A DNA stretch of 64,000 nt from Candidatus Omnitrophota bacterium (GCA_023227985.1 JALOCB010000005.1:5983-69982), one strand, 5' to 3'. Positions 41,860-64,000 are shown, counted from the stretch's first letter. Notes: generated by a model from the sequence alone, not told the origin. Numbers and translations are program-made.

Positions 41860-41860
41860 A

Positions 41861-46800: not shown

Positions 46801-46958
46801 TGCTGGCCGATTATAAATCATCAAAAGAAGAGAGGGGATCCGGGATCATCCAGATGCGCGAATATATCCGGATGGTCAAACAGCTTTATCCCGGGAAGAC
46901 GGTCAGGGGCTCGTTGATCTATCTTTCCGACGCTACGCATGAGGAAGTGGATGGATAA
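43800..46958 (+). CDS. AddA-like helicase-nuclease (UvrD-like helicase core plus C-terminal PD-(D/E)XK nuclease)
   Basis: 1052 aa; Walker A ASAGSGKT; DEFQDTS; C-terminal …RIDRMIV…LADYKS… nuclease motif; overlaps the upstream helicase by 17 nt. Confidence 0.75.
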   Translation: MTTISKAQIYVVEASAGSGKTYALAKQYLRLLIGPGLKPGEIPLRSILAITFTNKAAVEMKERILEFLKKIAFNQFRDPGEKKEILSFLETGEEAAREKAFLVMDEIIRNYNFFQVQTIDSFINAILSGCAFKLNLSAGFKIKTNYDEYLSFCLDKLIDRAAGNNEVMAVFEGYLRQYLYLENKAGWLPKKDILDTLAKMLNDSNVYGKGFTGYSLKDKNSLFVARRNLIGLMTELRDNEPDGTNQSVFKAFRNKLDKYGESLNIEELSRSFIAKEFPIRKNYQAPEKTALLWARIRKEIGELFELEALALLNCYIDIFKLFYGELLSAAGKDDVVFLAELNRKARVLFDEQGITVPELYYRLATRFRHYLIDEFQDTSALQWKNLFLMVEEALSTGGSLFYVGDKKQAIFRFRGGDTRLFDGLQSQFQNFPVKRSYLSDNYRSCFAIVDFNNRVFSLDNLKRFLQEKDAQEETKKSGLTLTASEAADILAVFDCSAQKSQVKSSGYVRIERVDAQAGEDTGDIIRVKCVELIRELSARLNGYRNIAILCRTNRQIEEITSWLGLEHIPVESEKTLNIRSHGLIKEIISFLKFLNSPIDDLSFASFILGDIFTRAGGISKEEISGFIFSAHRDRQSKARDVYLYREFRRRYPGIWDEFIEEFFKGVGFIPIYELVITIFSRFRITERFRDAQGFIMRFLEMIKNRVNEENASIGSFLEYFESGHNEDMYLNISSADAVKVMSVHKAKGLGFDAVIIPFLEINPEISAGQDKRPYAVYPEQGELRLLKLNKNYLQFSEFLAGVYRAEYRRSLIDELNNAYVAFTRARSELYCFIPPKSANSYNLANLLITEELLESGEKNRISREDANISVKTLDIPPLRYASWIPVLKDEFVQVSELDNRQRLREGEYSHAVLSYIPNLVDKDVSLQKALKMAIGKADPLFEDITDLVGLKKKIRLTLDSPGLAQFFREEGAKVYTEKEFVNAQGQTKRIDRMIVTANQVLLADYKSSKEERGSGIIQMREYIRMVKQLYPGKTVRGSLIYLSDATHEEVDG

Positions 46959-49793: not shown

Positions 49794-49821
49794 TTGATTA
49801 CGGGCTTCTTTATGATATAAT
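49794..49821 (+). promoter_or_regulatory. Candidate sigma70 promoter with extended -10 for the downstream accessory operon
   Basis: TTGATT (49794-49799), 16-nt spacer, TGaTATAAT (49813-49821); RBS GAGGGGGTG before ATG 49856. Confidence 0.45.
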
Positions 49822-49855
49822 CGCATAAGAAGCGTTTAAATCGAGGGGGTGAAAA

Positions 49856-50923
49856 ATGAGTGGCCGGATCAAATTTTTATCCGCTATTTTTGTTGTCGTG
49901 CTGGCCGTTTGTCCGAACGCGGCTTTCGCCGATACGCTCATCTTAACAGACGGGCAAAAGATAGAAGGAAAAATAATAAAAAAGGCCGACTCTTTCATCC
50001 GTATCGAGGAAAACGGCATACCGATCACATATTTTTCAGAAGAGATAAAAGAAATCATTGAATCCCCTCTGGCCCCCGCGGCCGCTGATATAAACCCGCC
50101 GGGCAATACGGCGGTAAACGCCAGTCCTTACCCTGATGCCAAAGCTGACGGCGATACAAGATCCATTCTCGCCGCCGAACCGCCCGCGAATCAAGCTGAT
50201 GCCCCGCGCATAGATTTGCGCGACCTTGATCGCGACAAACTAACCTCGACTATTAAGAATTTTTTCCTGCATCAGTATGATGCGGACCTAACGCAGTTTT
50301 TTACCAGCGTTACGGATGAATTCAGGGAAATTTTTTTGTTTAACCGGGCAAAACGCAATATCCGCCAAGCAAATGATATCCGGGAGGGTATGGAGGATTT
50401 TACGCTTGATGATATTGTCTTGAACGCCGATAACAATTCCATCACGGTCAGCGTTTCTTTTTTTCTGAGCGCTTCATATAAAACCGTCATATTAAAAAGG
50501 GAAGTTTCCGGATGGAAAATAAACAATATACAGCACGCCCAAGGCGAATCCTGGGTTGAAAATCCGGGAATTTCAAATATTCCCGATTACGATAAGATAA
50601 CCGAGGTTATTTGGAATTTTTTCCTGCATCAGAACGATGCGGATCTAACACAGTGTTTTACCAGCGTTACGGATGAATTCAGGAAGATCAGGCAGGCGCA
50701 TATGAAAAAGCGCCGGGTCGGAAACACTGAATCATTGTCCGTAAACAAAAAGAATTTCAGGATGTTTACCCTTGATCTGACCGGCAATACCGGCATGGCA
50801 AACGTTTCCTTCAATTCCGGACCATTGACCATGCGGGTTATAATGAAGCGGAAAGGGGATGACTGGAAAGTGAACGAGATAATAAACAGCACTGAAGGCG
50901 CCGCCCCAGCCAGGTCGTACTAA
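49856..50923 (+). CDS. Secreted protein with two tandem ~110-aa NTF2-like (DUF4878-like) repeat domains
   Basis: Signal peptide MSGRIKFLSAIFVVVLAVCPNAAFA. Two repeats share NFFLHQ[YN]DADLTQ[FC]FTSVTDEFR and a C-terminal …WK[IV]N[NE]I…. Confidence 0.55.
   Translation: MSGRIKFLSAIFVVVLAVCPNAAFADTLILTDGQKIEGKIIKKADSFIRIEENGIPITYFSEEIKEIIESPLAPAAADINPPGNTAVNASPYPDAKADGDTRSILAAEPPANQADAPRIDLRDLDRDKLTSTIKNFFLHQYDADLTQFFTSVTDEFREIFLFNRAKRNIRQANDIREGMEDFTLDDIVLNADNNSITVSVSFFLSASYKTVILKREVSGWKINNIQHAQGESWVENPGISNIPDYDKITEVIWNFFLHQNDADLTQCFTSVTDEFRKIRQAHMKKRRVGNTESLSVNKKNFRMFTLDLTGNTGMANVSFNSGPLTMRVIMKRKGDDWKVNEIINSTEGAAPARSY
50258..50683 (+). repeat. Direct repeat: two 69-nt copies (50258-50326 and 50615-50683), about 93% identical, inside the tandem-repeat gene
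   Basis: aattttttcctgcatcag…ttttaccagcgttacggatgaattcagg appears twice with 5 mismatches; flanking repeat sequence is much more diverged. Confidence 0.8.
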
Positions 50924-50943
50924 ATTATCAACTGTTTTTCATT

Positions 50944-52002
50944 GTGCCATATACACCCTCTAAAAAACCTCGAACGAATATCGGTATTCGCCATCGCATG
51001 TCGAAAAAAAACACGCGTATAAGCCTGATCGCCATTTTGTTTTTTATAGCCGCGGAATTGCTGTTGCGGTTATTTGGCTGGGGCCCCGCGCCGCACGTAT
51101 ACGAGGAGATCCTTGACCCCGAGATCCAATGGCTCCATACCGCAGGTTTTAAAGGGCGCGTATGGGAAACAGATATCGAAATAAGCCCTCAAAGGATAAG
51201 GGACCGGATCTATTCAATCAATAAACCCAAATATACATTCCGGGTCATCGCAGTCGGTGAATGCACTGTTTTCGGCCGGGCGGTCGCTCTGGAAGAATCT
51301 TTCGTAAAACGATTAGAAGTATTGCTCAATGAACGCAAACCGTTCAAAAACATTAATGACTACGAAGTTATCAATGCGGGCTGCGGCCAATATAACGACC
51401 TCCAAAAAGAAGCCTTTCTCGAGAAATACTGGATGCGCTATAACCCTGACTTGATAATCTTCGGCCATGATCTGGGCTCCAAGGTATGGCTGGAAACCAG
51501 GCTTAAGCTGAGATGGTTCAGCTTGATTCGCGATCGAACGCCTAAACAACTGTATTCCGCGCGTTTTCTGGTATCTTTAATAGAACGTTTTATTATCGCG
51601 CCGGTGGCGCTGAAAATGTCGCACTATGACGAAAAAAATACCGTGCTGACCCGCTATACGGGCGAAGGGCTGCGCCATATTAAAACCGACCAAGCGTTAA
51701 AAAGGCTGTCCTTGTTAAGCCGAAAAACGGATGTCCCCGCCATAATCGTTTTTGTGCCCTGGTTAGGCGATTTATCCGAGGGCAGTTACCCCCATAAATG
51801 GGTGCATGAACTTTACAAAAAAAAGTGCGCGAAAAGCAACCTGGATGTATTGGATCTTTATGACGTCTATTTCAAGAACAAGCAATGCGATTTGTTCTGG
51901 GTCAGCGACGCAAACCGCCGGCCGAACGCGTTAGCGCACAAGATCATAGCCGAAGAGGTTTATCAGGAAATCGTGAAACGGGCTTCTTTGCCTAAAAAAT
52001 AA
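50944..52002 (+). CDS. Membrane-anchored SGNH/GDSL-hydrolase-like protein (AlgJ/DltD-like topology), non-canonical catalytic motifs
   Basis: N-terminal TM helix ISLIAILFFIAAELLLRLFGW. Block-I-like VIAVGECTVFG has GEC instead of GDS. C-terminal SDANRRPNALAH resembles block V. Real start may be ATG 50998. Confidence 0.4.
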   Translation: MPYTPSKKPRTNIGIRHRMSKKNTRISLIAILFFIAAELLLRLFGWGPAPHVYEEILDPEIQWLHTAGFKGRVWETDIEISPQRIRDRIYSINKPKYTFRVIAVGECTVFGRAVALEESFVKRLEVLLNERKPFKNINDYEVINAGCGQYNDLQKEAFLEKYWMRYNPDLIIFGHDLGSKVWLETRLKLRWFSLIRDRTPKQLYSARFLVSLIERFIIAPVALKMSHYDEKNTVLTRYTGEGLRHIKTDQALKRLSLLSRKTDVPAIIVFVPWLGDLSEGSYPHKWVHELYKKKCAKSNLDVLDLYDVYFKNKQCDLFWVSDANRRPNALAHKIIAEEVYQEIVKRASLPKK

Positions 52003-52019
52003 AAGGAACAGATATCACA

Positions 52020-53198
52020 GTGGACAAAAACCTTTGTTTAAAAATATTATTTATCGCTATATCCGCGGGCGCTTGTATGATCTCTTGCGCGTTCAGGCTG
52101 GGCGCCGATGATAATGCCCTGCCTATCCGGTTGGGTTATTTTCATGGCGGCCGGACAGTTTTATTGCTGCGCGCGTATGAAAATGCTGAATTCGATAAAA
52201 ACGGAATCCCGGTTGAGTTTTATTCAAAGAGGTTATATGAAAAAAACTATAAATTGATCCCAAAATCGATCCGGGAATTCAATCAGGGAGGGGGGAACAA
52301 AGCCGGCGCGGTTACCGGCACGGAATTCATGGAAGAGGTCATGAACAAGCAATTTGACCTGGCGGTAGTCGGGGAAAGTTCTTTTATCCGTTCAGTGTGC
52401 GAAGGGCAGCCGGTGGTCGCCATTGCCGAGCTGGGGCATGATGTGCGCGGGCATTCCGGGCATGTTTTCGCGATGAAAAAAGGCTTTAAAGCGGCGAGGC
52501 CTTCGGACTACCTGGGAAAGGTTTTGATCTCCAGGCGGGCCGGCGCCGCGGACGCTATGTTCTTGCGGGAATTCCTTAAAAAAGAAGGGCTCGACACAGA
52601 AAAACAGATATTGCAACTGGACGCCTTGCCCTCCACCCGGGAAGAAAAAAGAAAGCTTCCGAAGAATAAAGTGATAATTGTCGATAACCTGTTTGAAGAC
52701 AAAATGCAGGAAGGCATTGCCCGCGGCGTTATAGACGGCGGGTATTTTCACCTGATGGCTTATTCCAAAATAACCGGTTCATTTAAGATGATCCGGCCCT
52801 TGCATTATTGGGCTGATCCCGAACTTTCCCACGCCCTTTTAGTCTGCCGCAAAGAATTTCTGGAAAACAATAAGGAGCGCTTAACCGCATTTCTTGAGGT
52901 TTATATCAAACGGATACAATACGAGCACGGCCTCAGTTACGAAGATAGGACTAAAAAACAACCCAAGGGGCTGCAGATGGCGGTCAATCTTGACGGGCTT
53001 AATTATCCGCAGTATGATATCGTCCCGATCGTAAACCCCGGGTTGTTATACAGGGTTATGGGATTGTTGAGGAAATATAACTATATCGCCGATAAAAACG
53101 TAAAGATCGAGGATTTTATAGACAATAGCCTGGTATATAAGGCATTAGAGAACCTGGGGATCGGCGAAAAAGATGACCATTGGCAGTCGGAATATTAA
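52020..53198 (+). CDS. Periplasmic solute-binding protein, NitT/TauT (SsuA/NMT1/PhnD-like) superfamily; orphan, no permease or ATPase adjacent
   Basis: GTG start; signal peptide; …LGYFHGGRTVLLLRA… and overall type-2 periplasmic binding protein pattern. Confidence 0.5.
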   Translation: MDKNLCLKILFIAISAGACMISCAFRLGADDNALPIRLGYFHGGRTVLLLRAYENAEFDKNGIPVEFYSKRLYEKNYKLIPKSIREFNQGGGNKAGAVTGTEFMEEVMNKQFDLAVVGESSFIRSVCEGQPVVAIAELGHDVRGHSGHVFAMKKGFKAARPSDYLGKVLISRRAGAADAMFLREFLKKEGLDTEKQILQLDALPSTREEKRKLPKNKVIIVDNLFEDKMQEGIARGVIDGGYFHLMAYSKITGSFKMIRPLHYWADPELSHALLVCRKEFLENNKERLTAFLEVYIKRIQYEHGLSYEDRTKKQPKGLQMAVNLDGLNYPQYDIVPIVNPGLLYRVMGLLRKYNYIADKNVKIEDFIDNSLVYKALENLGIGEKDDHWQSEY

Positions 53199-54207
53199 AA
53201 GAACGGCGGTCCTGCTGGCTGTCCTGTTGATAAGCGGCAAATTCGCGTTTGCCGGGGTTCAGGGACAAGGCCGCAACACCGGCGATTTTACCAATATCAT
53301 CCTGGTAGGCTGGGACGGAACTAACCGGGATATTTTAACGGACTTCCTGCGCGCGGGTAAGCTGCCGAACCTGAAAGAGATAATGCGCGCGGGAGCAATG
53401 GTCAATACCGAGATCACCACGGGACGGACCGAGACTAAGCCGGGATGGGCGGAGATATTGACCGGATATAGCAGCAAGACTGTCGGGGTCCTGGCTAACC
53501 GGATTAACTATAAACCTATACCGGCGGGCTATACTGTTTTCGAAAGGTTGGAGGACGCGTTTGGGGATCGGGGGATCATAACAATATTCCTGGCCGGAAA
53601 AAGGCAGAATTTAGGAGCGCGCGGCCGGCATCGCGTATGGGTCACCGGTCCCAGAAAAGGATGGGACCGCGAAGAAGTCTGGGCAAAAGGCGATTTTTTG
53701 CCGGCCGAGGAAATGATATTATCATTCGAAGGAGAGCCATATTATACGGCTAAACCCCGTCTGGATGTTTATCAGAATGGATTGGGAAACGGCGAGGCAG
53801 TAGTTAAAAACACCCTTAAATACATCAAGAAATACGCGAAATCGCGTTTCTTTATGTTTACGCATTTTGAGGAGCCCGATGAACAGGGGCACGTTTTCGG
53901 GGGATATTCCGCGGAATATGGCCAAGCCTTGATCAAAGACGACATCTGGCTGGGGAGGATCATTGCTGCATTAAAGAAACTGGGGATTTACGAAAAAACA
54001 TTGATCTACGTTGTCACTGACCACGGTTTCGATATAAAAGGGGCCAAGCACCGCTATGAACCGCACACGTTCCTGATAACCAACGATCCCAAAGTGAAGC
54101 GAAATACCGGAGACAGGAAAGACCTTGCCCCGACGGTCCTATCCAGGTTCGGCCTGGACATTGATAAGATTGCCCCTTCTTTGGAAGGGGCTGATCTGAC
54201 CAGGTAG
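53173..54207 (+). CDS. Type I phosphodiesterase / nucleotide pyrophosphatase (NPP) family enzyme, secreted
   Basis: Signal peptide; IILVGWDGT (metal Asp), TETKPGWAEILTGY (Thr nucleophile region, compare TKTFPNHYTIVTGLYP), VVTDHGF. Confidence 0.65.
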   Translation: MTIGSRNIKRTAVLLAVLLISGKFAFAGVQGQGRNTGDFTNIILVGWDGTNRDILTDFLRAGKLPNLKEIMRAGAMVNTEITTGRTETKPGWAEILTGYSSKTVGVLANRINYKPIPAGYTVFERLEDAFGDRGIITIFLAGKRQNLGARGRHRVWVTGPRKGWDREEVWAKGDFLPAEEMILSFEGEPYYTAKPRLDVYQNGLGNGEAVVKNTLKYIKKYAKSRFFMFTHFEEPDEQGHVFGGYSAEYGQALIKDDIWLGRIIAALKKLGIYEKTLIYVVTDHGFDIKGAKHRYEPHTFLITNDPKVKRNTGDRKDLAPTVLSRFGLDIDKIAPSLEGADLTR

Positions 54208-54245
54208 GGCCGGGCAGTATGGTTTCTTAAAAAAACGGGTTTAAT

Positions 54246-55772
54246 ATGCTCATAACCAGGATAATATCAATCTTATTTCTCGCTGTGACTCTCGGGCAAG
54301 CCTGTAGTCAGGCCCAGCCTGATCCGGTTGCCTATGATTACGAGGATTTCAATCTAATCCTTATCGCCATCAATAATATCGGCGTCGAGCATATGAGTCT
54401 TTACGGATACAGCCGCCAGACCACCCCTAAACTGGATGCCTGGGCCAAGAATGCCCTGGTATTCGATGACGCGTATACCCCGGCATCCTGGACCCTGCCG
54501 GTGATGACTACCTTTTTTACTTCATTATACCCGTATACCCACGGGATCGCCAACCGTTCTTTTGATAATGCGCTGTCGCCCGAAACAGTCGTTTTGCCTG
54601 ATTTACTGCGAAGCTATGGATATGATACCGCCGCTTTTACCGGCGGCCTGGACAATAACAAGGTTTTCAGCCATATGAAAGGGTTCAACCATATCGCGGA
54701 TAATCCGGCGTATACGGGCTTTAAAATAACATTTAAACAAGCCTCTGACTGGCTCCGCAGGAATTCCGGGAAAAAGTTCTTTCTATTTATACAAGGTTAT
54801 GACGCGCACGCGCCTTTCAAGCCTCCGAAAAAGTTCAAGGGAGTATTCAGCGATACTGCCGGCAAGAAGATCACGATAAACCCGGATTTAACCTATCGCG
54901 GGTTTGAGGACCACGGCGGCCAATACTGGGCGCATTATTTCATCCCGGAAGAAGGCGCATATAACGGCCTGCGAAAAAGATGGAAGATAACGCCGCCGGT
55001 AAAAATAACCCGTGATGATATAGACCATCTGCGGGACCTTTATGATGAAGAAGTGCTATCTGTCGATTCGCAAACGGCAAGCTTCCTTGATTCTCTTGGT
55101 AAGGGTCTACTTAAAAATACAATAATCGTCGTTTTTTCCGAGCACGGGGAGATGTTCGCCAAGCATGGGAGGTTTGGGCGCGCAGGGACATTGCGCGGCG
55201 TGCTTTATGACGATGTGGTCCATGTGCCTTTGATGATAAAACTTCCCGGGCAAAAAGGCCGGAGGATAACCGGATTTGTCAATATGGCCGATATGATGCC
55301 GACAATCCTGGATTTATTGGGTATCCCCGCTATAAAGAATATCCAGGGGCTGTCCCTGATCCCGCTGATGAAGGATCAGACCCAGATAAATGATCATATC
55401 TATGCAGGCGCGTCGTATAACCTCACGAAGATACGCGAAAAAAAATTATATATGAACCCCAACGTCAATGAATCCATACGCAACGCCGATTGGAAGCTTA
55501 TACATGAGATAATTTATGAGCAGGAAAACCCGAAAATCCCCAGGTCCGAATGGCTCAATATCAAATCGGAGACATACGAGCTATATCATCTCGCGAGCGA
55601 CCCTGACGAACTTACGAATGTGCTCGATAAACATCCTCAAATGGCAACGGCGCTTTGCCAGAAACTAAAAAAGTGGTCTGAGGATTGCAGGAGTTTCAGT
55701 AACCACGCCGCGGTAACCTCAAAAATACCGGATGGCATATTAGAGGATGCCCGTGAAAACGGCTATTGGTAA
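54246..55772 (+). CDS. Secreted alkaline-phosphatase-superfamily 'sulfatase-fold' protein, Thr-type, paralog 1
   Basis: 508 aa; LILIAINNIG, TPASWTLP (Thr at the formylglycine position, no C-x-P-x-R), GYDAHAPF, FSEHGEMF. Confidence 0.7.
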   Translation: MLITRIISILFLAVTLGQACSQAQPDPVAYDYEDFNLILIAINNIGVEHMSLYGYSRQTTPKLDAWAKNALVFDDAYTPASWTLPVMTTFFTSLYPYTHGIANRSFDNALSPETVVLPDLLRSYGYDTAAFTGGLDNNKVFSHMKGFNHIADNPAYTGFKITFKQASDWLRRNSGKKFFLFIQGYDAHAPFKPPKKFKGVFSDTAGKKITINPDLTYRGFEDHGGQYWAHYFIPEEGAYNGLRKRWKITPPVKITRDDIDHLRDLYDEEVLSVDSQTASFLDSLGKGLLKNTIIVVFSEHGEMFAKHGRFGRAGTLRGVLYDDVVHVPLMIKLPGQKGRRITGFVNMADMMPTILDLLGIPAIKNIQGLSLIPLMKDQTQINDHIYAGASYNLTKIREKKLYMNPNVNESIRNADWKLIHEIIYEQENPKIPRSEWLNIKSETYELYHLASDPDELTNVLDKHPQMATALCQKLKKWSEDCRSFSNHAAVTSKIPDGILEDARENGYW

Positions 55773-55797
55773 TAACCGCTGATAATTTTAATACCCT

Positions 55798-57339
55798 ATG
55801 TTTATACTACGCATATTTCTGGTTTTGGTTATTGCGATCTTGTCGGGCGAGCGCCGTGTTTACGCTCAGCAGGACCAGGATAACCTATCATATAAGGGCT
55901 TCAACGTAATTCTGATCGCCATCAACAATATCGGCGCGGAACATATGAGCCTCTACGGATACCGCCGTGACACCAACCCTAAATTCAAAGTATGGGCAAA
56001 GGACGCGTTGATATTTGAAAACGCGTATTCCCCGGCATCCTGGACCCTGCCGGTAATAACAACTGTTTTTACGGCATTGAACCCGTATACACATAAGGTT
56101 ATGGATAGATACTTCGAAAATACACTTTCCACCGATATTAAGACGCTGCCGCAGGTCCTGGCTTATAACGGCTATGCCACCGCCGCTTTTACCGGAGGCC
56201 TTGATGATAATCGCATCTTTGGACATATGCGCGGTTTTTCGCAGACCGACGCAAACCCGTCTTTTACGGGTTTTGCGGTGACTTTAAAACAGGCGCGCAA
56301 ATGGCTTGCCCGTAACTCAAAAAATAAGTTTTTTCTGTTCGTCCACGGTTATGACGCTCATCCGCCGTTCACCCCGCCCCGGAAATTCCGAGGCGTCTTC
56401 AGCGACACAAAAGGCAAGGATATAACCATAAAACCAGGCTTTACCTATCGCGGCTTCCGGAAATTCGACGGCCGGTATCAGGCCTATTGCATAACCAGGG
56501 AGGATCCGCTGCATCCCAATATGGAACACGCTCAGGTTGATCCCGGGGACATATTCCCCCGTATCGTATTGACCCAGGACGACGTGGATTATTTGACCGA
56601 CCTGCATGATGAGACCATTTTGTCAGTCGATTCGCAAGTAACCAAATTCCTGGGCTCACTTGATAAAAACCTGCTGAAGAAAACGATCATCGTTGTTTTT
56701 TCTGAACATGGCGAAATGTTCGCTAAACACGGCAGATTCGGGCGCGTAGGCACAATACGCGGAACGCTTTACGATGACGTGGTCCACATACCGTTATTGG
56801 TCAAAATCCCCGGGCTAAAAAACCGCAGGATAACCGGGCTGGTCCAACTCGCGGATATTATGCCCACAATACTGGATTTACTGGACATCCCGTTCCTGCG
56901 CCGGTTGCAGGGAAGGTCTCTGGTGCCGTTGATAAAGCACGACCTGGCCGTTAATGATTATGTTTATTCGGGCGCGGCATATAACTTCGCCGGAGGGCCG
57001 AAAAGGCCGTTCTCAAGCTATCCCAGTATCAATGAGTCGATCCGTAACCAGGATTGGAAGCTAATACACGAAATATTCTTTTCGGCGGATACCAAGGGAA
57101 AATTCAGCGATAATACGTCACTAAAGGTACAAGAAGAATCATTTGAGCTGTATGACCTTAACGCCGATCCAAACGAACTAAATAATGTGCGTAGCGCGTA
57201 TCCGGAAAAAACGAAAGAATTAACCGCCCTATTGGCCGAATGGTCCCAGGCATGCCGGGTTTCCGGCCAGTTCAATGCGTCTACCCAAAGGATCCCCGAC
57301 AAGATGATCAAAGACGCCAGAGAGCACGGTTATTGGTAG
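55798..57339 (+). CDS. Secreted alkaline-phosphatase-superfamily 'sulfatase-fold' protein, Thr-type, paralog 2
   Basis: 513 aa; about 65-70% identical to paralog 1 over the N-terminal core (VILIAINNIGAEHMSLYGY…SPASWTLP…FSEHGEMF). Confidence 0.7.
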   Translation: MFILRIFLVLVIAILSGERRVYAQQDQDNLSYKGFNVILIAINNIGAEHMSLYGYRRDTNPKFKVWAKDALIFENAYSPASWTLPVITTVFTALNPYTHKVMDRYFENTLSTDIKTLPQVLAYNGYATAAFTGGLDDNRIFGHMRGFSQTDANPSFTGFAVTLKQARKWLARNSKNKFFLFVHGYDAHPPFTPPRKFRGVFSDTKGKDITIKPGFTYRGFRKFDGRYQAYCITREDPLHPNMEHAQVDPGDIFPRIVLTQDDVDYLTDLHDETILSVDSQVTKFLGSLDKNLLKKTIIVVFSEHGEMFAKHGRFGRVGTIRGTLYDDVVHIPLLVKIPGLKNRRITGLVQLADIMPTILDLLDIPFLRRLQGRSLVPLIKHDLAVNDYVYSGAAYNFAGGPKRPFSSYPSINESIRNQDWKLIHEIFFSADTKGKFSDNTSLKVQEESFELYDLNADPNELNNVRSAYPEKTKELTALLAEWSQACRVSGQFNASTQRIPDKMIKDAREHGYW

Positions 57340-57421
57340 GATTTTTAAAATGACTTGTTTTTATCCTGGTTTTAGATTACAATTTATTTTTGCTCTGCAA
57401 AATATCATTTAAACAAAGACC

Positions 57422-58801
57422 ATGATGGATATACTTCAAAAAATAAAGGAAGAGTCAATAAAACCGCAAAAGACCGATCCCAATAAACCCCGCTTCGCCC
57501 TTATTGTACCGCCGTCTTGTTTTACCGTGCCCGAGGGATGGGAATTTGTTTTGAAGCAGCCCTTTGAAGGGGTTTCGTATATAGCTACCGTGCTGTTCAA
57601 TGCCGGTTTTCCGGTCCGGATCATTGACGCGCGTTTTCAGGATGATCCGGTAAAATTCGCGGTCGATTCGGTCAAAGACGCGGCAGTGGTCGGTATGGCT
57701 ACGTATGAGGATTCTTTCCCCTTTGTCCATGAAGCATGCGCGAAGATCAAACAAAAATACCCGGAGAAATTGATCGTTTTAGGCGGCGCTTTGGTGACTT
57801 CCACTCCGCAGGTACTTATAAAAAATACCGCCGCTGATATCGGCGTGCTCGGCGAAGGCGAAGAGACTACCCGGGAGCTCCTGGATGCCATCGCCGAAGG
57901 CAAACCGGAGGATTTTGAAAAGATCGCCGGATTATGCTATAAGGACAATTCCGGCGGCATTCATTTTACCGAAAAACGCCCGCAGATGGCCGACCTGGAA
58001 TCACTGCCGTTAATGAACCTCTCTTTATGGCCGGCGGTGCAGAAAGACAAAAAGGTCAAGGAGATATTCTTCTCCCATAGCCGCGGATGTTACAAGAATT
58101 GTTCATTCTGTTTCCGGACCACCCCGCAGCTCAGCCAAAAGTCGATCGGGAAATTCCAGGATGAGCTCAGGGAACTGAAAAAACAATATGATTTCGAATT
58201 CATTTATTTCGTGGACCTGACTTTCGCCATCCAGAAACAACGGACACTTGAGATATGCGAAGTTTTAAAAGAGTTCAAAGTCAGTTGGTCGTGCATGTCC
58301 AGGGTCCAGAATATAGACGAAGAAATGCTAAAGGCGATGAAAGCCGCCGGCTGTCAGATAATCCTCTACGGCTTCGAATCACTGGACCAAAATATCCTGG
58401 ATAACGCTCATAAAGGCATCACCCCTGCGCAGATACGCAGGATGGTAAAATTAACCCAGGACAACGGGATACAGGTAGGAGGACTGTTCATTGTGGGCCT
58501 GCCCCAGGAAACCAAAGAATCCCTGAGAAAAGTCGTTGATTTTATCGATGAGACCGGGAGCGCGTGCCGGGTGAAATATTTATCCGCTATCCCGGGCACT
58601 GAAATTTACCGTTGGGCGCTCGCAACCGGGATAATCAAAGATGAGGTAAGCCATTTGCGCTGGCTGGCAAATGAAAGATGCGATAAAGACGACGAATTTA
58701 TAAATTTCACGCGGCTGCCGGATGAAGTCATACGCGACACCTATATGGAAATAAATTCAAAATATATCAAAGGCCCGCGCTACACTAATGAATGGTTTTA
58801 A
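57422..58801 (+). CDS. B12-binding-domain radical SAM enzyme (class B), paralog 1
   Basis: 459 aa; N-terminal cobalamin-binding Rossmann-like domain; SRGCYKNCSFCF = CX3CX2C. Confidence 0.8.
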   Translation: MMDILQKIKEESIKPQKTDPNKPRFALIVPPSCFTVPEGWEFVLKQPFEGVSYIATVLFNAGFPVRIIDARFQDDPVKFAVDSVKDAAVVGMATYEDSFPFVHEACAKIKQKYPEKLIVLGGALVTSTPQVLIKNTAADIGVLGEGEETTRELLDAIAEGKPEDFEKIAGLCYKDNSGGIHFTEKRPQMADLESLPLMNLSLWPAVQKDKKVKEIFFSHSRGCYKNCSFCFRTTPQLSQKSIGKFQDELRELKKQYDFEFIYFVDLTFAIQKQRTLEICEVLKEFKVSWSCMSRVQNIDEEMLKAMKAAGCQIILYGFESLDQNILDNAHKGITPAQIRRMVKLTQDNGIQVGGLFIVGLPQETKESLRKVVDFIDETGSACRVKYLSAIPGTEIYRWALATGIIKDEVSHLRWLANERCDKDDEFINFTRLPDEVIRDTYMEINSKYIKGPRYTNEWF

Positions 58802-58828
58802 GGCCATCACCGGGAAGGAGTCTTTGCT

Positions 58829-60253
58829 TTGAAGAAAACCAGCCTTTCAGCCGTTGAAGAATCGATTAAAGGCGCATCGTCTTCGCCATTGACTGCCGAT
58901 CCTAAAAAACCGCGGTTCATAATCATTGTCCCGCCTTCGCCGCAAATACCCACACCGGGGCGGGAATTCCTGCTGCGCACGCCCATTGAAGGCGTTACCT
59001 TTATCGCCACTGTGGCCAAGAACGCCGGTTTCGGCGTTGAGATCGTGGATTACCGCACCACGCCGGTCCCGCCTGAAGAATTGATCGCGAAAAGCGGCGA
59101 TCACGCTATTTTTGCGCTAACCACCTTTATCGACGGTTATGTTTTTATGGAAGATTTTATCCGCAGGGTAAAAAAAATTGATCCCGGCAACATCGTCATA
59201 TTGGGAGGCCCGTTTGTTTCCTCTACCCCGGAATTACTGATGCGCGCTTTGCCGGCGGATTTCGCGGTACTGGGGGAAGGGGAATTGACGATCCTGGAGC
59301 TTCTGGCCGCTCTATCCGGCAAAACGCCGGAAAAAATACCGCTGATCGACGGGTTAGCCTATCGGGAAAATGGAAAGATCAAATTTACCAGGCCCCGGGC
59401 GCAGATAAATGACCTGGATATCCTGCCGGCGCTGGATTTTTCTCTCTGGCCGACTGTCGCCAAAGACAGGTTGATCGAAAAGATCGGGATATCGTCAAGC
59501 CGCGGGTGTTACGCGCGCTGTTCTTTCTGTTTTAAGGCCATACCCGAAGTCCGCCAAATGACCCCGGAGAAATTCGGACAGGATATGGCCGCGTATGTGC
59601 GCAAATATGGGATAAAATACGCCTATATCAACGACCTTACCTTTGTCATCGGCAGGACGCGGACAGTAAAATTATGCGAGGAACTTAGGAAAACCGGGGT
59701 GCGCTGGGCTTGTTCCACCAGGGTGGAGAATATCGACGACGACCTGTTGAGGCTGATGAAGGACTGCGGCTGCGATGAAATATGGTACGGGATAGAATCG
59801 GTCGACCAAAAAGTACTTAACGCCAATTTCAAGAATATAACCGTGGAAAAGATCGAGCGGGCTGTGGAGATGACCAATAAGGCCGGGATCAAGGTCATGG
59901 CTAACTTTATTGTAGGACTGCTGGGAGAAACCGAGGAGTCTCTCGACCAGATGGTAAGGTTTATCGAGACCCAGGATATCATCCCATGCAGCATTAAATA
60001 TCTGACCCCGTTCCCCGGGACCCCGGTTTATCAATACGCGCTTGAAAAGAAGCTTATCGTCGATGAAATAGAGTATTTCCGCGTTTTAGGCCAGCGTAAA
60101 GTCAATTGTGCCGAGGATACGATCGTTAATTGCACCAGCCTGGCCGAATCTAAGCTCAGAGAAGCATTTATGCGGATCCGACGCATCTCTTATGACCGTT
60201 ACGGACCTCTGGATTGGGATAATGGATCACAAACAACTAAAAAAACAGTTTAA
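58829..60253 (+). CDS. B12-binding-domain radical SAM enzyme (class B), paralog 2
   Basis: 474 aa; TTG start after GGGAAGGAG; SRGCYARCSFCF; about 45% identical to paralog 1. Confidence 0.8.
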   Translation: MKKTSLSAVEESIKGASSSPLTADPKKPRFIIIVPPSPQIPTPGREFLLRTPIEGVTFIATVAKNAGFGVEIVDYRTTPVPPEELIAKSGDHAIFALTTFIDGYVFMEDFIRRVKKIDPGNIVILGGPFVSSTPELLMRALPADFAVLGEGELTILELLAALSGKTPEKIPLIDGLAYRENGKIKFTRPRAQINDLDILPALDFSLWPTVAKDRLIEKIGISSSRGCYARCSFCFKAIPEVRQMTPEKFGQDMAAYVRKYGIKYAYINDLTFVIGRTRTVKLCEELRKTGVRWACSTRVENIDDDLLRLMKDCGCDEIWYGIESVDQKVLNANFKNITVEKIERAVEMTNKAGIKVMANFIVGLLGETEESLDQMVRFIETQDIIPCSIKYLTPFPGTPVYQYALEKKLIVDEIEYFRVLGQRKVNCAEDTIVNCTSLAESKLREAFMRIRRISYDRYGPLDWDNGSQTTKKTV

Positions 60254-60962
60254 GAACCGGGCGAGGACATTCGACAGATCCGCGAGATGGGTCAAAGACC
60301 CGGGGCTTTTGGATATCCACCGCAAACTTGCCAAGATACTTCCCGGCGAAACCGTTCTTGAGGCATGCTGCGGTACGGGGATCGTTGGTGCGGACCTATG
60401 CAAAAGCGGCAACACGGCCATCGGTCTGGATCTGAGCCTGGATATGCTGGGATTTGCCGGTAAACGCCTGGATCATTGCGTCAACGCACAAACCGAGCAT
60501 CTGCCTTTCGCCGATAATACGTTTGACGTCGCGGCCTGCCGCCAGGCAATGCATTTTCTGGATATGAAACGTTTTTTCTTTGAATTATTCCGGGTCGTAA
60601 AACCAGGCACAGGCAGGGTAATAATAAGCCAGATCGTCCCGTTCGGAGAAAAGGATAAGGCCTGGGTGCGCAGGATCCATCAAAAAAAACAGAATATGCT
60701 GCGCAATTTCGTCTGCGAGCAGGATATCCTGGACGGCTTGAAAAGGGCCGGGTTTAAAAAAATCGAGCGCCGCGAATATACCATTGAAGAGCCGATAAAC
60801 CCGTGGCTGACCGACACATTTTTCCCGCCTAAAAAGATCGAAGAATTAAAGGGAATGTTTATCAACGCGCCTGCGCAATACAAGGAATTACACCGCGTCC
60901 GCTGCGTAAGAGGCGCGATCTACGAAACGATGCGCTGGATAATAGCTTTAGGGAGGAAATAA
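60222..60962 (+). CDS. Class I SAM-dependent methyltransferase
   Basis: ATG 60222 (MDHKQLKK…), overlapping the radical-SAM gene end; motif I VLEACCGTGIVG, then GLDLS, FADNTFDVAA, LFRVVKPGTGRVI. Confidence 0.65.
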   Translation: MDHKQLKKQFKNRARTFDRSARWVKDPGLLDIHRKLAKILPGETVLEACCGTGIVGADLCKSGNTAIGLDLSLDMLGFAGKRLDHCVNAQTEHLPFADNTFDVAACRQAMHFLDMKRFFFELFRVVKPGTGRVIISQIVPFGEKDKAWVRRIHQKKQNMLRNFVCEQDILDGLKRAGFKKIERREYTIEEPINPWLTDTFFPPKKIEELKGMFINAPAQYKELHRVRCVRGAIYETMRWIIALGRK

Positions 60963-60965
60963 AAG

Positions 60966-62366
60966 ATGCCCCGCGCCGGTTCATTTCTGATCTTGCTGGG
61001 AATAATATGTTTTTCCGCTAACGCGCACGCCGGGGATACCGCCGCCGTAATAAAGAGCGGGCAGTTCAAGGGGTATAATGTTCTGCTCGTTTCTTTTGAC
61101 GCGCTGCAGGCCGGGCATGTCGGATGCCTTGGCTATAGCCGCAATACCACCCCGACCATAGATTCATTCGCCGGGGAAGGTTTTCTGTTCAAGAACGCCG
61201 TTTCCCAGGCTTCCTGGACCGTGCCGGCGACGATGAGCTACTTTACCTCGCTTTATCCGTCGCAACACCGTTGCGTAAACAAATATTCCGTATACACCGA
61301 TAATGAAAAAATATTGACCAGCCTGAAAGACCTCTCCCCGGAAACCGTAACCCTGGCCGAGGTGTTAAAAAACAACGGCTACGCGACCGGGGGATTTACC
61401 GGCGATGCCGGGGTAAGCGGGCATTTCGGCTTCGGCCAGGGATTTGATACTTATTTCGACGGTCCTAAATTCGGAGGAATGGATACCAGTATCCCTGAAG
61501 CCCTTAAATGGCTGAGATCCAACCACAATAGAAAATTCTTTATTTTTCTGCACGGCTACGATTGCCACGGCCAATATGACCCGCCCAACGGCTTTACCCG
61601 GCGCTACCTTGATTTTAATTATACCGGACCGTTAAAAGGCGGCAAAGAAGAGCAGGGAAGGCTGCGCGAAGACAGCCTGAATAAGAACGCCATAAGCCTG
61701 ACCGAGCAGGACGCCGGATTCTGGAGGTCGTTGTATGACGAAAAAATAAACGACGTCGATGAACGGTTCCGCCAGTTCATCGAAGCCCTGCGCAAAATGG
61801 GCGTTTTAGACAAAACCGTTATAATACTTGTTTCCGACCATGGCACGGAATTCTATGAGCATAAAAGGTTTGACCACGGGCATTCTCTTTACGATGAACT
61901 TATACGCGTGCCGCTTATCTTCCGGCTTCCGGGGATAAAAAAGAACGCCGTTATTCCCGACCAGGTGCGCGGCATCGATATAATGCCTACGGTTCTGGAC
62001 CTGATCGGGATTAAAATTACCGGAAAAGTAAAAAACCAGGCCAAAGGCGTGAGCCTGAGGCCGCTGATGAACGGAGAGAAGCTGAAGCTGGACGCCTACA
62101 GCGAAACGGATTACCGGTTTTATACCAGCAAGCGCTCGATCCGCACAGCCGACGGCTGGAAATTAATTTACACTATGGAAACCGGAAAAAAAGAACTTTA
62201 TAACCTGCAAACCGACCCCGCTGAAACGGTCAACCGTGTTGCTGACGAACAGAAAACCGCGTACGAGCTGGAACAAAAACTTTTTGCCTGGATGCGATCC
62301 ATGGGGCAGGGGGAGAATTACCACGAAGACCTGTTAAGAAGCGTGCTGCGGATCAAAGAATATTGA
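60966..62366 (+). CDS. Secreted alkaline-phosphatase-superfamily 'sulfatase-fold' protein, Thr-type, paralog 3
   Basis: 466 aa; VSFDAL, SQASWTVP, GYDCHGQY, VSDHGTEF. Confidence 0.7.
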   Translation: MPRAGSFLILLGIICFSANAHAGDTAAVIKSGQFKGYNVLLVSFDALQAGHVGCLGYSRNTTPTIDSFAGEGFLFKNAVSQASWTVPATMSYFTSLYPSQHRCVNKYSVYTDNEKILTSLKDLSPETVTLAEVLKNNGYATGGFTGDAGVSGHFGFGQGFDTYFDGPKFGGMDTSIPEALKWLRSNHNRKFFIFLHGYDCHGQYDPPNGFTRRYLDFNYTGPLKGGKEEQGRLREDSLNKNAISLTEQDAGFWRSLYDEKINDVDERFRQFIEALRKMGVLDKTVIILVSDHGTEFYEHKRFDHGHSLYDELIRVPLIFRLPGIKKNAVIPDQVRGIDIMPTVLDLIGIKITGKVKNQAKGVSLRPLMNGEKLKLDAYSETDYRFYTSKRSIRTADGWKLIYTMETGKKELYNLQTDPAETVNRVADEQKTAYELEQKLFAWMRSMGQGENYHEDLLRSVLRIKEY

Positions 62367-62374
62367 CGCCCTAA

Positions 62375-63748
62375 ATGCCTGATTGCAGGAAGATATTATC
62401 ACTTTTTTTGCTTTCATCCCTGATCCCCGTATTGCCGCTTTACGCGCAATCCCCGGTTGATCCCGCTTCCGGTTATAACCTGATATTCATCTGCCTGGAT
62501 ACCCTGCGCCCCGACCACCTGGGATGTTACGGCTACGGACGCAATACCAGCCCGCGTATCGACGCGATATCCGGCCAGGGGGTATTGTTCAAGAATGCCT
62601 TCGCCCAGTCTAACTTTACCCTGGCCAGCCACGCTTCTTTGTTCACCTCAAAATACGCTCATAGCCATAACGCCGACCGGATCGAGCGCCGGCTCGCGGA
62701 TGAAGAAATAACCATAGCGGAGGTACTTAAAGCCAACGGCTATAAAACCGCGGCTTTTATACACAATGCGCAGCAATTCGACCCGAAATTCGGGCTTAAC
62801 CAGGGTTTTGAGACATATGATTTCGCGGTAGAAGCCAACCGGCGTCCTTCGATAGAAAAAACGCTCCCTGCCTGCCTAAAATGGATAACCCGCCATAAAA
62901 ACGAGAGATTTTTCGTTTTTCTGCATGCCAATGATATACACGAACCATATCATTGCCCGGATGAGGATTATTTCGACGAAGGATATCACGGCCGGCTGGA
63001 TCAGGAGTATATGGCAACCTGGCCGCCGGGATTCCACACGCGCAATCTCAAACGGACCAAACAAGAGGCCCGGCATATAATCGCACACTATGACGCGGGG
63101 ATCAGATACACGGACTCCTACGTTGGTAAATTCTTCGATCATTTAAAGGGGGCCGGGTTGCTGAATAAAACAATACTGGTGTTCTTTTCCGACCACGGCG
63201 AAATACTGGGTGAAAGAAAAAAGTTTTTCGGGCATGGATTAAGCCTGCATGACGAAGAAGTGCGCGCGGCTTTGTTGTTTTGCCTGCCTCAGGCAAAACA
63301 ACAAACAGTCGAGGAACAGGCACAGTTGGTCGATATAATGCCTACTGTGCTGGAATTGCTGCGGATAGATACCAAAGGGCTCGGGCTTGAAGGGAAAAGC
63401 CTGGTTAAAACATTTTTGCCGGGCAGCGCCATCGACGAAGAAATAAATGAATATGTTTATGCGGGATGCCTGAGCGGCGAAAGCGAGGACAACGGCCTGA
63501 CCGATACCCAGGCGATGATCCGCAGCCGCTCATGGAAACTTATTACACATACATGGGGATTCCCGGCGGATCATAAAAATATCAAAAGCGTGCAGATGCA
63601 TAACGGCGCGATCATAACCGCTCCTTTCAGGAACAGGATCGAACTGTATGACCTTAGAAAAGACCCCCGGGAAATAAACAACCTGGCCGGCCGGGGATAC
63701 GCCGATATCGAAAACATGTTATTGTCAAAACTGCTGGAATTATTTTAA
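62375..63748 (+). CDS. Secreted alkaline-phosphatase-superfamily 'sulfatase-fold' protein, paralog 4
   Basis: 457 aa; ICLDTL, AQSNFTLAS, ANDIHEPY, FSDHGEILG. Confidence 0.7.
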   Translation: MPDCRKILSLFLLSSLIPVLPLYAQSPVDPASGYNLIFICLDTLRPDHLGCYGYGRNTSPRIDAISGQGVLFKNAFAQSNFTLASHASLFTSKYAHSHNADRIERRLADEEITIAEVLKANGYKTAAFIHNAQQFDPKFGLNQGFETYDFAVEANRRPSIEKTLPACLKWITRHKNERFFVFLHANDIHEPYHCPDEDYFDEGYHGRLDQEYMATWPPGFHTRNLKRTKQEARHIIAHYDAGIRYTDSYVGKFFDHLKGAGLLNKTILVFFSDHGEILGERKKFFGHGLSLHDEEVRAALLFCLPQAKQQTVEEQAQLVDIMPTVLELLRIDTKGLGLEGKSLVKTFLPGSAIDEEINEYVYAGCLSGESEDNGLTDTQAMIRSRSWKLITHTWGFPADHKNIKSVQMHNGAIITAPFRNRIELYDLRKDPREINNLAGRGYADIENMLLSKLLELF

Positions 63749-63750
63749 CA

Positions 63751-64000
63751 ATGAGAATAAAGCTTATATTCTTTTGTGCCCTTACTATCGCCGGACCGTT
63801 TATCGCCTCGCGGGCTTACCCTGCCGGCCCGAAATATAACATAGTTATTATCGTCGTCAACGCGCTAAGGACCGATTATATGGGCTGTTACGGGTCCCGG
63901 CAGGGGAATACCCCGAATATTGATTCCCTTGCCGCTGAAGGCGCGTTATTCGATAACGCAATAAGCCAGTCATATTGGACGCTGCCCAGCATGGTATCTT
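63751..64000 (+). CDS. Secreted alkaline-phosphatase-superfamily 'sulfatase-fold' protein, paralog 5 (N-terminal fragment; continues beyond window)
   Basis: ATG 63751: MRIKLIFFCALTIAGPFIASRA…NIVIIVVNALRTDYMGCYG…TPNIDSLAAEGALFDNAISQSYWTLPSMVS. Confidence 0.6.
   Translation, partial: MRIKLIFFCALTIAGPFIASRAYPAGPKYNIVIIVVNALRTDYMGCYGSRQGNTPNIDSLAAEGALFDNAISQSYWTLPSMVS

Follow-up and report, generated by a model that had tools for sequence, protein, structure and literature searches.

A sulfotransferase-less Omnitrophota gene cluster of B12-binding radical SAM enzymes and exported Thr-type sulfatase-fold proteins, possibly related to nucleocidin and ascamycin sulfamoylation genes

The sulfamate group (R-O-SO2-NH2) is a rare feature of the nucleoside antibiotics nucleocidin and ascamycin. 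The nucleocidin sulfamylation genes encode the sulfatases NucG and NucI, the radical S-adenosylmethionine (SAM) enzyme NucJ, the sulfotransferases NucK and NucO, and the methyltransferase NucL (Wojnowska et al., PMC10946740), as well as NucN, an amidinotransferase whose role is tentative, and NucQ, a pseudo-rubrerythrin (PMC10946740). Single knockouts of nine genes (nucG, I, J, K, L, N, O, P and Q) abolish sulfamylation (PMC10946740), but neither paper attributes a reaction to NucG, I, J, L, P or Q (PMC10946740, PMC4257720). The 3'-phosphoadenosine-5'-phosphosulfate (PAPS) genes of Streptomyces calvus are unlinked from the nuc cluster (PMC10946740). The ascamycin counterparts are acmG-Q, and the best match of acmK is SGR_905 of S. 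griseus (PMC4257720, Table 1). Here we describe a cluster of 12 tightly spaced + strand genes (g01-g12; Table 1 of this text) spanning positions 49856-64000 of a 64,000-nucleotide stretch, the window, from the metagenome-assembled genome of a Candidatus Omnitrophota bacterium (GCA_023227985.1, JALOCB010000005.1:5983-69982). Its core is a triad of a cobalamin (B12)-binding radical SAM (rSAM) enzyme (g07, rSAM1), a class I methyltransferase (g09) and sulfatase-fold proteins with Thr in place of the usual nucleophile (Thr-type; g05, g06 and g10-g12), which, judged from published descriptions, would correspond to nucJ, nucP/L and nucG/I, respectively (PMC10946740, PMC4257720). The cluster may be an exported, sulfotransferase-less Omnitrophota variant of sulfamoyl-assembly module 1 (defined below), a reading that we hold to be quite possible, if a little short of probable.

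The window shares with nuc/acm a B12-radical SAM enzyme at the NucJ/AcmJ position, a methyltransferase resembling the C-terminal part of NucP, and Thr-type sulfatase-family proteins; its relatives also share the linkage to sulfate activation genes. It differs in having no NucK, NucO, NucN, NucQ, GyrB-like ATPase domain, second methyltransferase or nucleoside-tailoring genes. By tblastn, no homolog of NucK, NucO, NucN, NucQ, the GyrB N-terminal domain or CysD was found in the 64-kb window, and the sole match of a CysN query was the EF-Tu gene. A second radical SAM enzyme (g08, rSAM2) stands in place of the GyrB-like ATPase domain of NucP and of NucQ, five exported sulfatase-fold paralogs are present as against two cytoplasmic ones in nuc/acm, and an exported enzyme of the nucleotide pyrophosphatase/phosphodiesterase (NPP) family (g04) and a solute-binding protein (g03) are added. 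What is new is the occurrence of module 1 alone, with a second rSAM and five Thr-type paralogs that are exported, and with an NPP and a solute-binding protein alongside; the core belongs to a gene set that genetics had already linked to sulfamate formation. The first-pass annotation of this DNA had proposed an operon of thirteen genes unlike any described system. The listing of open reading frames (ORFs) in the window gives 12, and the claim of novelty survives in part: the core triad corresponds to nucleocidin/ascamycin sulfamoylation genes, whereas the arrangement with an exported paralog array, NPP and binding protein but no sulfotransferases or amidinotransferase-fold protein was not found in the literature searched.

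Homologs of rSAM1 were placed on contigs, a scan of one genome per species yielded 80 further loci, and window proteins and recurrent neighbours were mapped by tblastn. In the 80 genomes with rSAM1 homologs of 37-49% identity, a single cassette type surrounds the rSAM gene. The hosts include actinomycetes (many Streptomyces, S. griseus among them, Micromonospora and Actinomadura), Sorangium and other Myxococcota, Azospirillum, Gemmatimonadota, Elusimicrobiota, Omnitrophota, Geobacterales, Desulfuromonadaceae, Nitrospiraceae and Bdellovibrionota, and the cassette families co-occur across these phyla in varying orders and orientations. In the 55 loci flanked by 8 kb or more in either direction, the neighbours include a methyltransferase (91%), a sulfatase-fold protein (75%), a fusion of a GyrB N-terminal domain to a methyltransferase (GyrB-N::MT, 67%), a PF00685 sulfotransferase (65%), a NucO-like protein of about 450 aa with a weak Sulfotransfer_3 match (64%), a protein of the ADI/DDAH/amidinotransferase fold (60%), a rubrerythrin-like protein of about 140 aa (58%), CysD (11%) and CysN (7%). 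A PDB sequence search with the NucO-like protein returned no match. The single rSAM of the Streptomyces cassettes is 42-46% identical to rSAM1 over its full length, and in the S. griseus locus (L058) the protein sizes and the orders rSAM-then-sulfotransferase and rubrerythrin-then-GyrB-N::MT agree with those published for nuc/acm. Compared by published descriptions, the cassette appears to match nucG/I/J/K/L/N/O/P/Q (acmG-Q) in gene content, protein sizes and local gene order. When the literature was searched for this combination of genes, for B12-rSAMs accompanied by Thr-type sulfatases and for recent studies of sulfamate biosynthesis, the genetics papers on nucleocidin and ascamycin were all that came up; no later assignment of the reactions was found, and none of the work found described the cassette in organisms other than actinomycetes. 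The complete cassette is present in the non-actinomycete lineages listed above (loci L008-L087 and L093), Bdellovibrionota/Bacteriovorax among them, several of which are predatory or episymbiotic. Streptomyces without known sulfamate production (S. griseus, S. anulatus) carry it as well.

The cassette divides into two separable modules. Module 1 consists of the rSAM, a methyltransferase, either NucP/Q-type genes or rSAM2, and usually Thr-type sulfatase-fold proteins; module 2 comprises the sulfotransferases NucK and NucO, the amidinotransferase-fold NucN and sometimes sulfate-activation genes (CysD/CysN, APS kinase). Most genomes carry both, and in Streptomyces the two jointly build R-O-SO2-NH2 from PAPS. 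Module 1 without module 2 is found in the clade of the window and in several metagenome-assembled genomes (MAGs) of Myxococcota and proteobacteria. Within module 1, rSAM2 and the NucP/Q-type genes (GyrB-N::MT and rubrerythrin-like) exclude each other: the latter occur in 0 of 17 loci with rSAM2 and in 57 of 73 without it (Fisher p = 1e-9, for loci that are phylogenetically non-independent and include many Streptomyces). This exclusivity suggests functional replacement, so that rSAM2 and the pair of GyrB-N::MT and pseudo-rubrerythrin might be alternative solutions for one function. The rSAM2 gene was found in the window and in L001, L005, L007, L082-L084, L088, L089 and L093. The window methyltransferase g09 aligns with residues 395-641 of the L006 GyrB-N::MT fusion at 33% identity (E 1.5e-37). 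Both the NucP-type methyltransferase domain and a stand-alone NucL-type enzyme are present in 35 loci, and in all 35 g09 scores higher against the former.

Window-type loci were defined by an rSAM at least 55% identical to rSAM1 (the window, L005, L088, L089, L001, L090 and L002; n=7), and stem from Omnitrophota, Elusimicrobia or metagenome contigs. Thr-type sulfatase-fold genes and a methyltransferase lie beside the rSAM in 7/7 of them, most also hold rSAM2, an NPP-family gene and/or an NMT1-type binding protein, and NucK, NucO, NucN, NucP and NucQ were found within 10 kb in 0/7. For the reverse test, three g10 orthologs were chosen solely for long contigs outside the loci already matched, and each of the three has a B12-rSAM within 7 kb. 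Since co-occurrence is conserved across related loci in both directions, the cluster is a conserved functional unit. The unit had been proposed, as an uncharacterised one, by the first-pass annotation, and its suggested neighbourhood check on B12-rSAM, methyltransferase and Thr-type proteins came out in its favour from either side.

Several of the related loci vary this arrangement. A complete ABC importer lies directly upstream of rSAM1 in L002 and L088, a second sulfatase and B12-rSAM pair is present in L088, and an extra SPASM-type rSAM adjoins cytoplasmic Thr-type paralogs in L001 and L089. Fusions join a sulfatase-fold protein to an NMT1 binding domain (880 aa, L090 1613-4255), a ferredoxin-SPASM-rSAM to a methyltransferase (642 aa, L089 7669-9597) and, in Bacteriovorax, a B12-rSAM to a methyltransferase (797 aa, P0088, L006 6166-8559). 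A third B12-rSAM subfamily (L094 16585-18000; L095 13110-14522), with 43% mutual identity and about 30% identity to rSAM1/2, adjoins g10 orthologs (56% identity). The unit in L095 consists of sulfatase-sulfatase-rSAM alone and immediately follows genes for a CrcB fluoride channel and a DUF190 protein. A metagenome scan with rSAM1 as single query returned only the near-identical L091 and L092 and added no diversity.

The sulfatase-fold proteins match Pfam PF00884 with 127-156 bits when full-length and 34 bits for the truncated g12. With g04 they make up the six enzymes of the alkaline phosphatase (AP) superfamily (one NPP and five PF00884) that had been counted previously; the number holds, and the last member is truncated by the window end. 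The cluster of the close relative L005 (87% identity) stops after the gene that is cut here. As had been noted, the C/S-x-P-x-R motif is in none of the five window proteins: Thr replaces Cys/Ser in 5/5, and His, Thr or Met replaces Arg. Among cassette-linked sulfatase-fold ORFs, those of Streptomyces included, the formylglycine position holds Thr in 90 of 93, Ser in 3 and Cys in none, and the typical cassette motif is T-x-P-[SA]-H, as against C-x-P-S-R in sulfatases; it is also found in the cytoplasmic Streptomyces proteins. The Thr-type feature is a hallmark of the whole cassette system. The window proteins are only 25-29% identical to their Streptomyces cassette counterparts. An AlphaFold2 (AF2) model of g10 has a predicted local distance difference test score (pLDDT) of 87, its top 50 PDB fold neighbours are all S1 (formylglycine) sulfatases with template modelling (TM) scores of 0.59-0.69, and a PDB sequence search with g10 returned S1 sulfatases only. 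NPP, LtaS, EptA/MCR-1 and PafA share with these proteins the Thr nucleophile, the superfamily scaffold and the D...T...D-H metal-ligand pattern; unlike LtaS and EptA, the sulfatase-fold proteins among g05-g12 have no multi-pass membrane domain, and both sequence and fold place them closest to soluble S1 sulfatases; only g04 is a true NPP.

By hydropathy alone, a hydrophobic N-terminus is present on 9 of the 12 cluster proteins (the repeat protein, the SGNH-like, NMT1-type and NPP proteins and the five sulfatase-fold proteins) and absent from rSAM1, rSAM2 and the methyltransferase, which are accordingly predicted to be cytoplasmic. Orthologs of g10 with 55-72% identity occur in Omnitrophota, Geobacterales, Desulfuromonadaceae and Nitrospiraceae. 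Those of Desulfuromonadaceae/Nitrospiraceae (L082 18042-19535; L083 9310-10707) carry twin-arginine translocation (Tat) signal motifs, GRREFIKK and SRRDFLRR, unlike window g10, whose signal is Sec-like. In the g05/g06 subfamily, Asn-Asn (AINNIG or ISLGNVG) takes the place of the first metal-binding Asp of the other sulfatase-fold proteins (SFDAL or SLDTL). The substitution is conserved across distant loci (window g05/g06, L005, L015, L039, L089) and may reflect either a changed metal site or a partner subunit that has no catalytic role. ORFs with 50% and 48% identity to g06 are present in L015 and L039, respectively.

Both radical SAM proteins, as first annotated, are class B paralogs: each has an N-terminal B12-binding domain (PF02310, 58 bits), a Radical_SAM domain (PF04055, 72-75 bits) and the CxxxCxxC motif, and in the homolog alignment C223, C227 and C230 of rSAM1 are invariant. 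The assignment of g09 as a class I methyltransferase was borne out by Pfam matches. Neither rSAM has a SPASM or Fer4 match in Pfam, and the sulfatase-fold proteins lack C/S-x-P-x-R; as first stated, the rSAMs are not anaerobic sulfatase-maturating enzymes (anSMEs). The window resembles the anSME systems (AtsB, ChuR) in that a radical SAM gene adjoins exported S1-fold genes and one rSAM set may serve several paralogs. It differs in that the rSAMs are of class B, bind cobalamin and have no SPASM domain, T-x-P-x-[H/T/M] stands for C/S-x-P-x-R, and a methyltransferase is always alongside. The curated NCBIfam identities tried for the rSAMs (HpnJ, BchE, PhpK, ApyD, the methyl-coenzyme M reductase (MCR) glutamine methylase and others) were rejected, all scores being far below cut-off: HpnJ 187 vs 578 and BchE 153 vs 481 were the best, PhpK (TIGR04479) gave 125 and 122 bits vs 600, and MCR modification (TIGR04014) 103 vs 360 bits. 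By these scores the rSAMs belong to none of the curated families. Hopanoid, bacteriochlorophyll and ribosomally synthesised and post-translationally modified peptide (RiPP) readings were likewise rejected, with no pathway neighbours and no precursor-like conserved small ORF. The AF2 model of rSAM1 (pLDDT 88) has MgmA, TsrM, OxsB, AprD4, CysS and TokK as nearest folds, and a PDB sequence search returned generic class B rSAM relatives only. The pairing of a class B rSAM with a SAM methyltransferase, and MgmA as nearest solved fold, recall MgmA/QCMT, Mmp10 and McmA, but no MCR is present, and MgmA as top neighbour is not discriminating because the other five folds score nearly the same. Neither the rSAM1 nor the g10 fold search separated one function from another.

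The recurrent partners of the cassette are CysD/CysN sulfate adenylyltransferase, adenosine 5'-phosphosulfate (APS) kinase, PAPS-type sulfotransferases and a TauE-family permease. In L001, whose rSAM1 is 62% identical, CysD-CysN-NPP lies directly upstream of the cluster. In L093 a g10 ortholog (66%) ends a full cassette (sulfotransferase, NucO-like, NucN-like, APS kinase and MT-rSAM-rSAM-MT), which is followed by an NPP-CysN-CysD-TauE block. On this comparison with known genes, the cluster could quite possibly concern sulfur(VI)-ester rather than phosphonate chemistry. It also resembles sulfate-ester and sulfonate scavenging systems (AtsA, AtsK, AtsRBC, SsuABC, TauABC) in combining a NitT/TauT-family binding protein with sulfatase-family hydrolases, with a full importer in L002 and L088. 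It differs from them in having no permease, ATPase, oxygenase or formylglycine sulfatase, and in the presence of the B12-rSAMs. On two unrelated contigs (L001 1094-5188, L093 13074-17147) an NPP-family protein of 600-680 aa shares an operon with CysD and CysN; that of L093 is cytoplasmic and that of L001 has N-terminal membrane segments. This NPP may act on APS/PAPS-type phosphosulfate nucleotides.

If the cluster is a module 1 variant, the exported Thr-type enzymes would use Thr as covalent nucleophile on sulfur(VI) esters outside the cytoplasm, candidate substrates being sulfate, sulfamate or phosphosulfate-type esters, possibly nucleoside-linked. The Thr adduct, unlike the formylglycine adduct, would be unable to eliminate, and group transfer or slow hydrolysis would therefore be favoured. 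The NPP g04 would cleave accompanying phosphodiester or pyrophosphate bonds and the binding protein g03 would capture the anionic product, while cytoplasmic rSAM1, rSAM2 and the methyltransferase would carry out, on a small-molecule intermediate, the same cobalamin-dependent, methyl-transfer-linked step as NucJ/NucP. The role of the cluster would then be salvage, detoxification or re-use of sulfo- or sulfamoyl-compounds, not phosphonate synthesis. In this scheme we infer the substrate class, the direction of the pathway (salvage or synthesis) and the part of Thr as transfer nucleophile. Several points weigh against it. The link to nuc/acm is one of gene content, sizes, order and published statements; because the chemistry of NucG/I/J/L/P/Q is unsolved, the same step has no defined content, and because the cluster holds no transporter, the scheme does not account for how its exported enzymes are linked to the cytoplasmic ones. 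The genome could also encode module 2 at another site. Of the 55 well-flanked loci, 14 (25%) have no sulfatase-fold gene within 10 kb, and the loci compared are not phylogenetically independent, many being from Streptomyces. To our knowledge, every characterised Thr-nucleophile enzyme of the AP superfamily (NPP, LtaS, EptA, PafA) transfers phosphoryl, not sulfuryl, so phosphoester substrates of the exported enzymes stay chemically plausible.

Among other explanations, a maturation role is unlikely, though less so than the rest: rSAM1, rSAM2 and the methyltransferase would modify the Thr-type proteins in the cytoplasm before export and place a post-translational modification or a cofactor on or close to the conserved S-W-T-x-P segment. 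Sulfatase-family proteins would then have a third route of maturation, in addition to FGE and anSME and comparable to the modification of MCR by B12-rSAM and class I methyltransferase. This best accounts for cytoplasmic rSAM and methyltransferase genes amid five exported paralogs with no transporter, and it fits the two-way linkage (g10 orthologs always have a B12-rSAM neighbour, even one of the third subfamily in L094 and L095), the minimal sulfatase-sulfatase-rSAM operon of L095, the second pair in L088, the SPASM-type rSAMs beside cytoplasmic Thr-type paralogs in L001 and L089, and the common phenotype of all nuc module 1 knockouts. The Tat signals on some g10 orthologs imply export after folding, and the top fold neighbour of rSAM1, by a negligible margin, is the protein-modifying MgmA. 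Yet Thr-nucleophile enzymes of the AP superfamily need no maturation, and the loci that have no sulfatase-fold gene nearby include 8 of 38 with sulfotransferase or amidinotransferase-fold genes, L012, L014 and L062 being complete cassettes of this kind. The complexity of module 1 (an rSAM, two methyltransferases, a GHKL ATPase and a diiron-like protein) resembles small-molecule or cofactor chemistry, the importers directly upstream of rSAM1 suggest an imported small substrate, and no fusion of rSAM and sulfatase-fold domains was seen. Improbable by comparison is that the window holds half of a complete sulfamate or sulfate-ester biosynthesis, of a nucleoside-sulfamate-type toxin for instance, with NucK, NucO, NucN and the PAPS genes elsewhere. 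The full cassette is very common in Omnitrophota (the best 120 of 443 NucO-like matches are at least 44% identical, and most of the source-named ones are from Omnitrophota/Omnitrophica), L093 has its g10 ortholog inside a full cassette, and the PAPS genes of S. calvus are likewise unlinked. Against this stand the absence of module 2 within 10 kb from all seven window-type loci and, as weak evidence, the lack of any on the closest relatives' contigs of 1.87 Mb, 294 kb and 118 kb among the best 120 of 443 NucO-like matches; a set of exported enzymes with a binding protein also suits uptake better than synthesis.

A comparably low probability attaches to envelope modification, the alternative named at first, in which the B12-rSAMs and methyltransferase would alter a membrane-lipid or polyprenyl-linked head group and the exported Thr-type enzymes, LtaS/EptA/OpgB-like, would move a phospho- or sulfo-head group onto envelope acceptors. 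The weak NCBIfam matches to the Thr-nucleophile enzymes LtaS, EptA, CptA and YejM speak for it, as do the many B12-rSAMs that act on lipids (HpnJ and a ladderane-type family are among the best sub-threshold matches), the glycosyltransferase and aminotransferase genes around L094, the GT2 and PMT_2 genes upstream in L089 and the recurrence of GDSL-like proteins. The exported proteins, though, have only an N-terminal signal or anchor in place of a multi-pass membrane domain, g10 is nearest to soluble S1 sulfatases, and in Streptomyces the counterparts are cytoplasmic proteins that work towards a nucleoside product. The phosphonate or phosphoester pathway proposed at first fares worse still, and we consider it very improbable that the B12-rSAMs are Fom3/PhpK-like C- or P-methylases in organophosphonate or phosphinate tailoring or scavenging. 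The sub-threshold PhpK match, another to the Sden_1168 P-methyltransferase model, the nature of Thr-type AP-superfamily enzymes and NPP as phosphoryl-transfer catalysts, and a weak Phosphonate-bd match of the binding-protein family in L002 would all fit; but a PEP-mutase-like motif had 0 matches in 96 related sequences (1.78 Mb), phn, pepM, ppd or other phosphonate genes were found in none of the locus contexts listed, and the PhpK, HpnJ and BchE scores are far below cut-off, for which reasons this reading is not supported. The partners are moreover sulfate-activation and sulfotransferase genes, and sulfamoylation is the sole experimentally known role of the cassette. That the genes are no functional unit at all, being chance neighbours in a region with every gene on the + strand, is scarcely credible. 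The entire window is indeed on the + strand and a single promoter is unproven, whereas the same families stand together across phyla in different orders and orientations, Rosetta-stone fusions exist (P0088, L089, L090) and the gaps are at most 82 nt with two overlaps; chance adjacency is refuted by the neighbourhood analysis.

The sulfamoylation genes are thus a cassette spread far beyond actinomycetes. The two separable modules, Thr in 90/93 proteins, the apparent replacement of GyrB-like::MT and pseudo-rubrerythrin by rSAM2, and the natural minimal versions narrow the mechanistic options. The window, with module 1 alone joined to exported enzymes, is one of these minimal versions, and the small Omnitrophota proteins offer simpler biochemical systems than the Streptomyces clusters. 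Uncultured anaerobes, predatory and episymbiotic lineages among them, may therefore commonly metabolise sulfamates or related sulfur(VI) esters. Should the B12-radical SAMs and methyltransferase after all be maturases that equip the Thr-type S1-sulfatase-fold proteins with a new catalytic residue or cofactor, which is doubtful, they would constitute a third sulfatase-family maturation system, with a new class of sulfuryl- or sulfamoyl-transfer enzymes. This would explain the joint need for nucG/I/J/L/P/Q in Streptomyces sulfamate formation and the constant B12-rSAM partner of exported paralog arrays in anaerobes.

Table 1. Features of the cluster, in coordinates of the 64,000-nucleotide window.
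Feature	Coordinates	Strand	Description	Evidence
Promoter candidate	49794..49821	+	Sigma-70-like; TTGATT, 16 nt, TG-n-TATAAT (extended -10)	Consensus match only
g01	49856..50923	+	355 aa, hydrophobic N-terminus, internal repeat	No Pfam match
g02	50944..52002	+	352 aa, membrane-anchored degenerate SGNH/GDSL-like	No Pfam match; alignment to GDSL protein
g03	52020..53198	+	NMT1/NitT-TauT-family solute-binding protein, signal-like N-terminus	Pfam NMT1 32.1 bits
g04	53173..54207	+	Exported NPP-type phosphodiesterase/pyrophosphatase	Pfam Phosphodiest PF01663 80.6 bits, cut-off 23
g05	54246..55772	+	Exported Thr-type S1-sulfatase-fold, WTLPVM	PF00884; Asn-Asn for first metal-binding Asp
g06	55798..57339	+	g05 paralog, WTLPVI, AINNIG	PF00884
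g07 (rSAM1)	57422..58801	+	Predicted cytoplasmic cobalamin-binding radical SAM	PF02310 + PF04055; NucJ/AcmJ position
g08 (rSAM2)	58829..60253	+	rSAM1 paralog, 41% identity	PF02310 + PF04055
g09	60192..60962 (start 60192 or 60222; longest ORF from 60108)	+	Class I SAM methyltransferase	Methyltransf_11/25
g10	60966..62366	+	Exported Thr-type S1-sulfatase-fold, SWTVPAT	PF00884; best-conserved paralog
g11	62375..63748	+	Exported Thr-type sulfatase-fold, FTLASH	PF00884
g12	63751..64000, cut by window end	+	N-terminus of fifth Thr-type sulfatase-fold, WTLPSM	PF00884 34 bits

The first four genes encode proteins with a hydrophobic N-terminus. The label NTF2-like first given to g01 is putative: Pfam gave no match, and what the alignment shows is an internal repeat. 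The two repeats of g01, of about 110 aa each, both contain NFF-x-HQ-x-DADLTQ-x-FTSVTDEF, and the first 50 residues past the signal resemble the N-terminal domain of Leptospira LA_0442/LA_0875 (NF047433) at a sub-threshold 26.6 bits (cut-off 43); homologs occur in close relatives only (L005, L092). The description of g02 as an SGNH-like membrane protein finds weak support in a GDSL protein of L007, with which g02 aligns at 26% identity (E 4e-8), and its catalytic Ser and His are replaced: GDS has become GEC, with Cys for the nucleophilic Ser, and the His of DxxH is lost. GDSL-like genes near the cassette are also found in L001, L007 and L013. The NMT1 match of g03, annotated in one source as an ABC-type nitrate/sulfonate/bicarbonate binding protein, agrees with its initial description as an orphan: the cluster holds no permease or ATPase gene, and g03 alone represents a NitT/TauT importer. 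ORFs with 58% and 34% identity to g03 are present in L015 and L090, respectively. The names that the sources give to the cluster proteins are generic. The catalytic Thr and metal-ligand motifs of g04, read from the translation, are intact (TETKPG, EPDEQGH, TDHG), as befits the NPP-family phosphodiesterase it was first called; its identity to an ORF in L015 is 50%.

Intergenic distances in the cluster range from -62 to +82 nt, with two overlaps. Since the entire 64-kb window is on the + strand, the shared direction of the cluster genes is uninformative. One extended -10 promoter had been claimed for the whole cluster. The site exists, lies in the 73-nt gap behind an AddB-like gene and is the top + strand match of the scan; that it is the single promoter is unproven because the scan of the region gave 27 sites vs 20.8 +/- 5 expected, i.e. 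no enrichment. Rfam found no riboswitch or other RNA in the whole window, and PADLOC gave no defence-system membership, its matches of the rSAMs to the candidate PDC-M51A (52-54 bits) and of the methyltransferase to mad2 (46 bits) being generic and weak. All credible genes of window positions 1-49782 are on the + strand and include rpoB/rpoC, S12-S7-EF-G-EF-Tu and the S10/spc ribosomal block, followed by a UvrD/AddA/AddB-like helicase-nuclease trio (41747-49782); the cluster begins 73 nt downstream of this trio. According to an Omnitrophota preprint, variable or mobile loci often include ribosomal-protein operons (10.64898/2026.06.07.730766).

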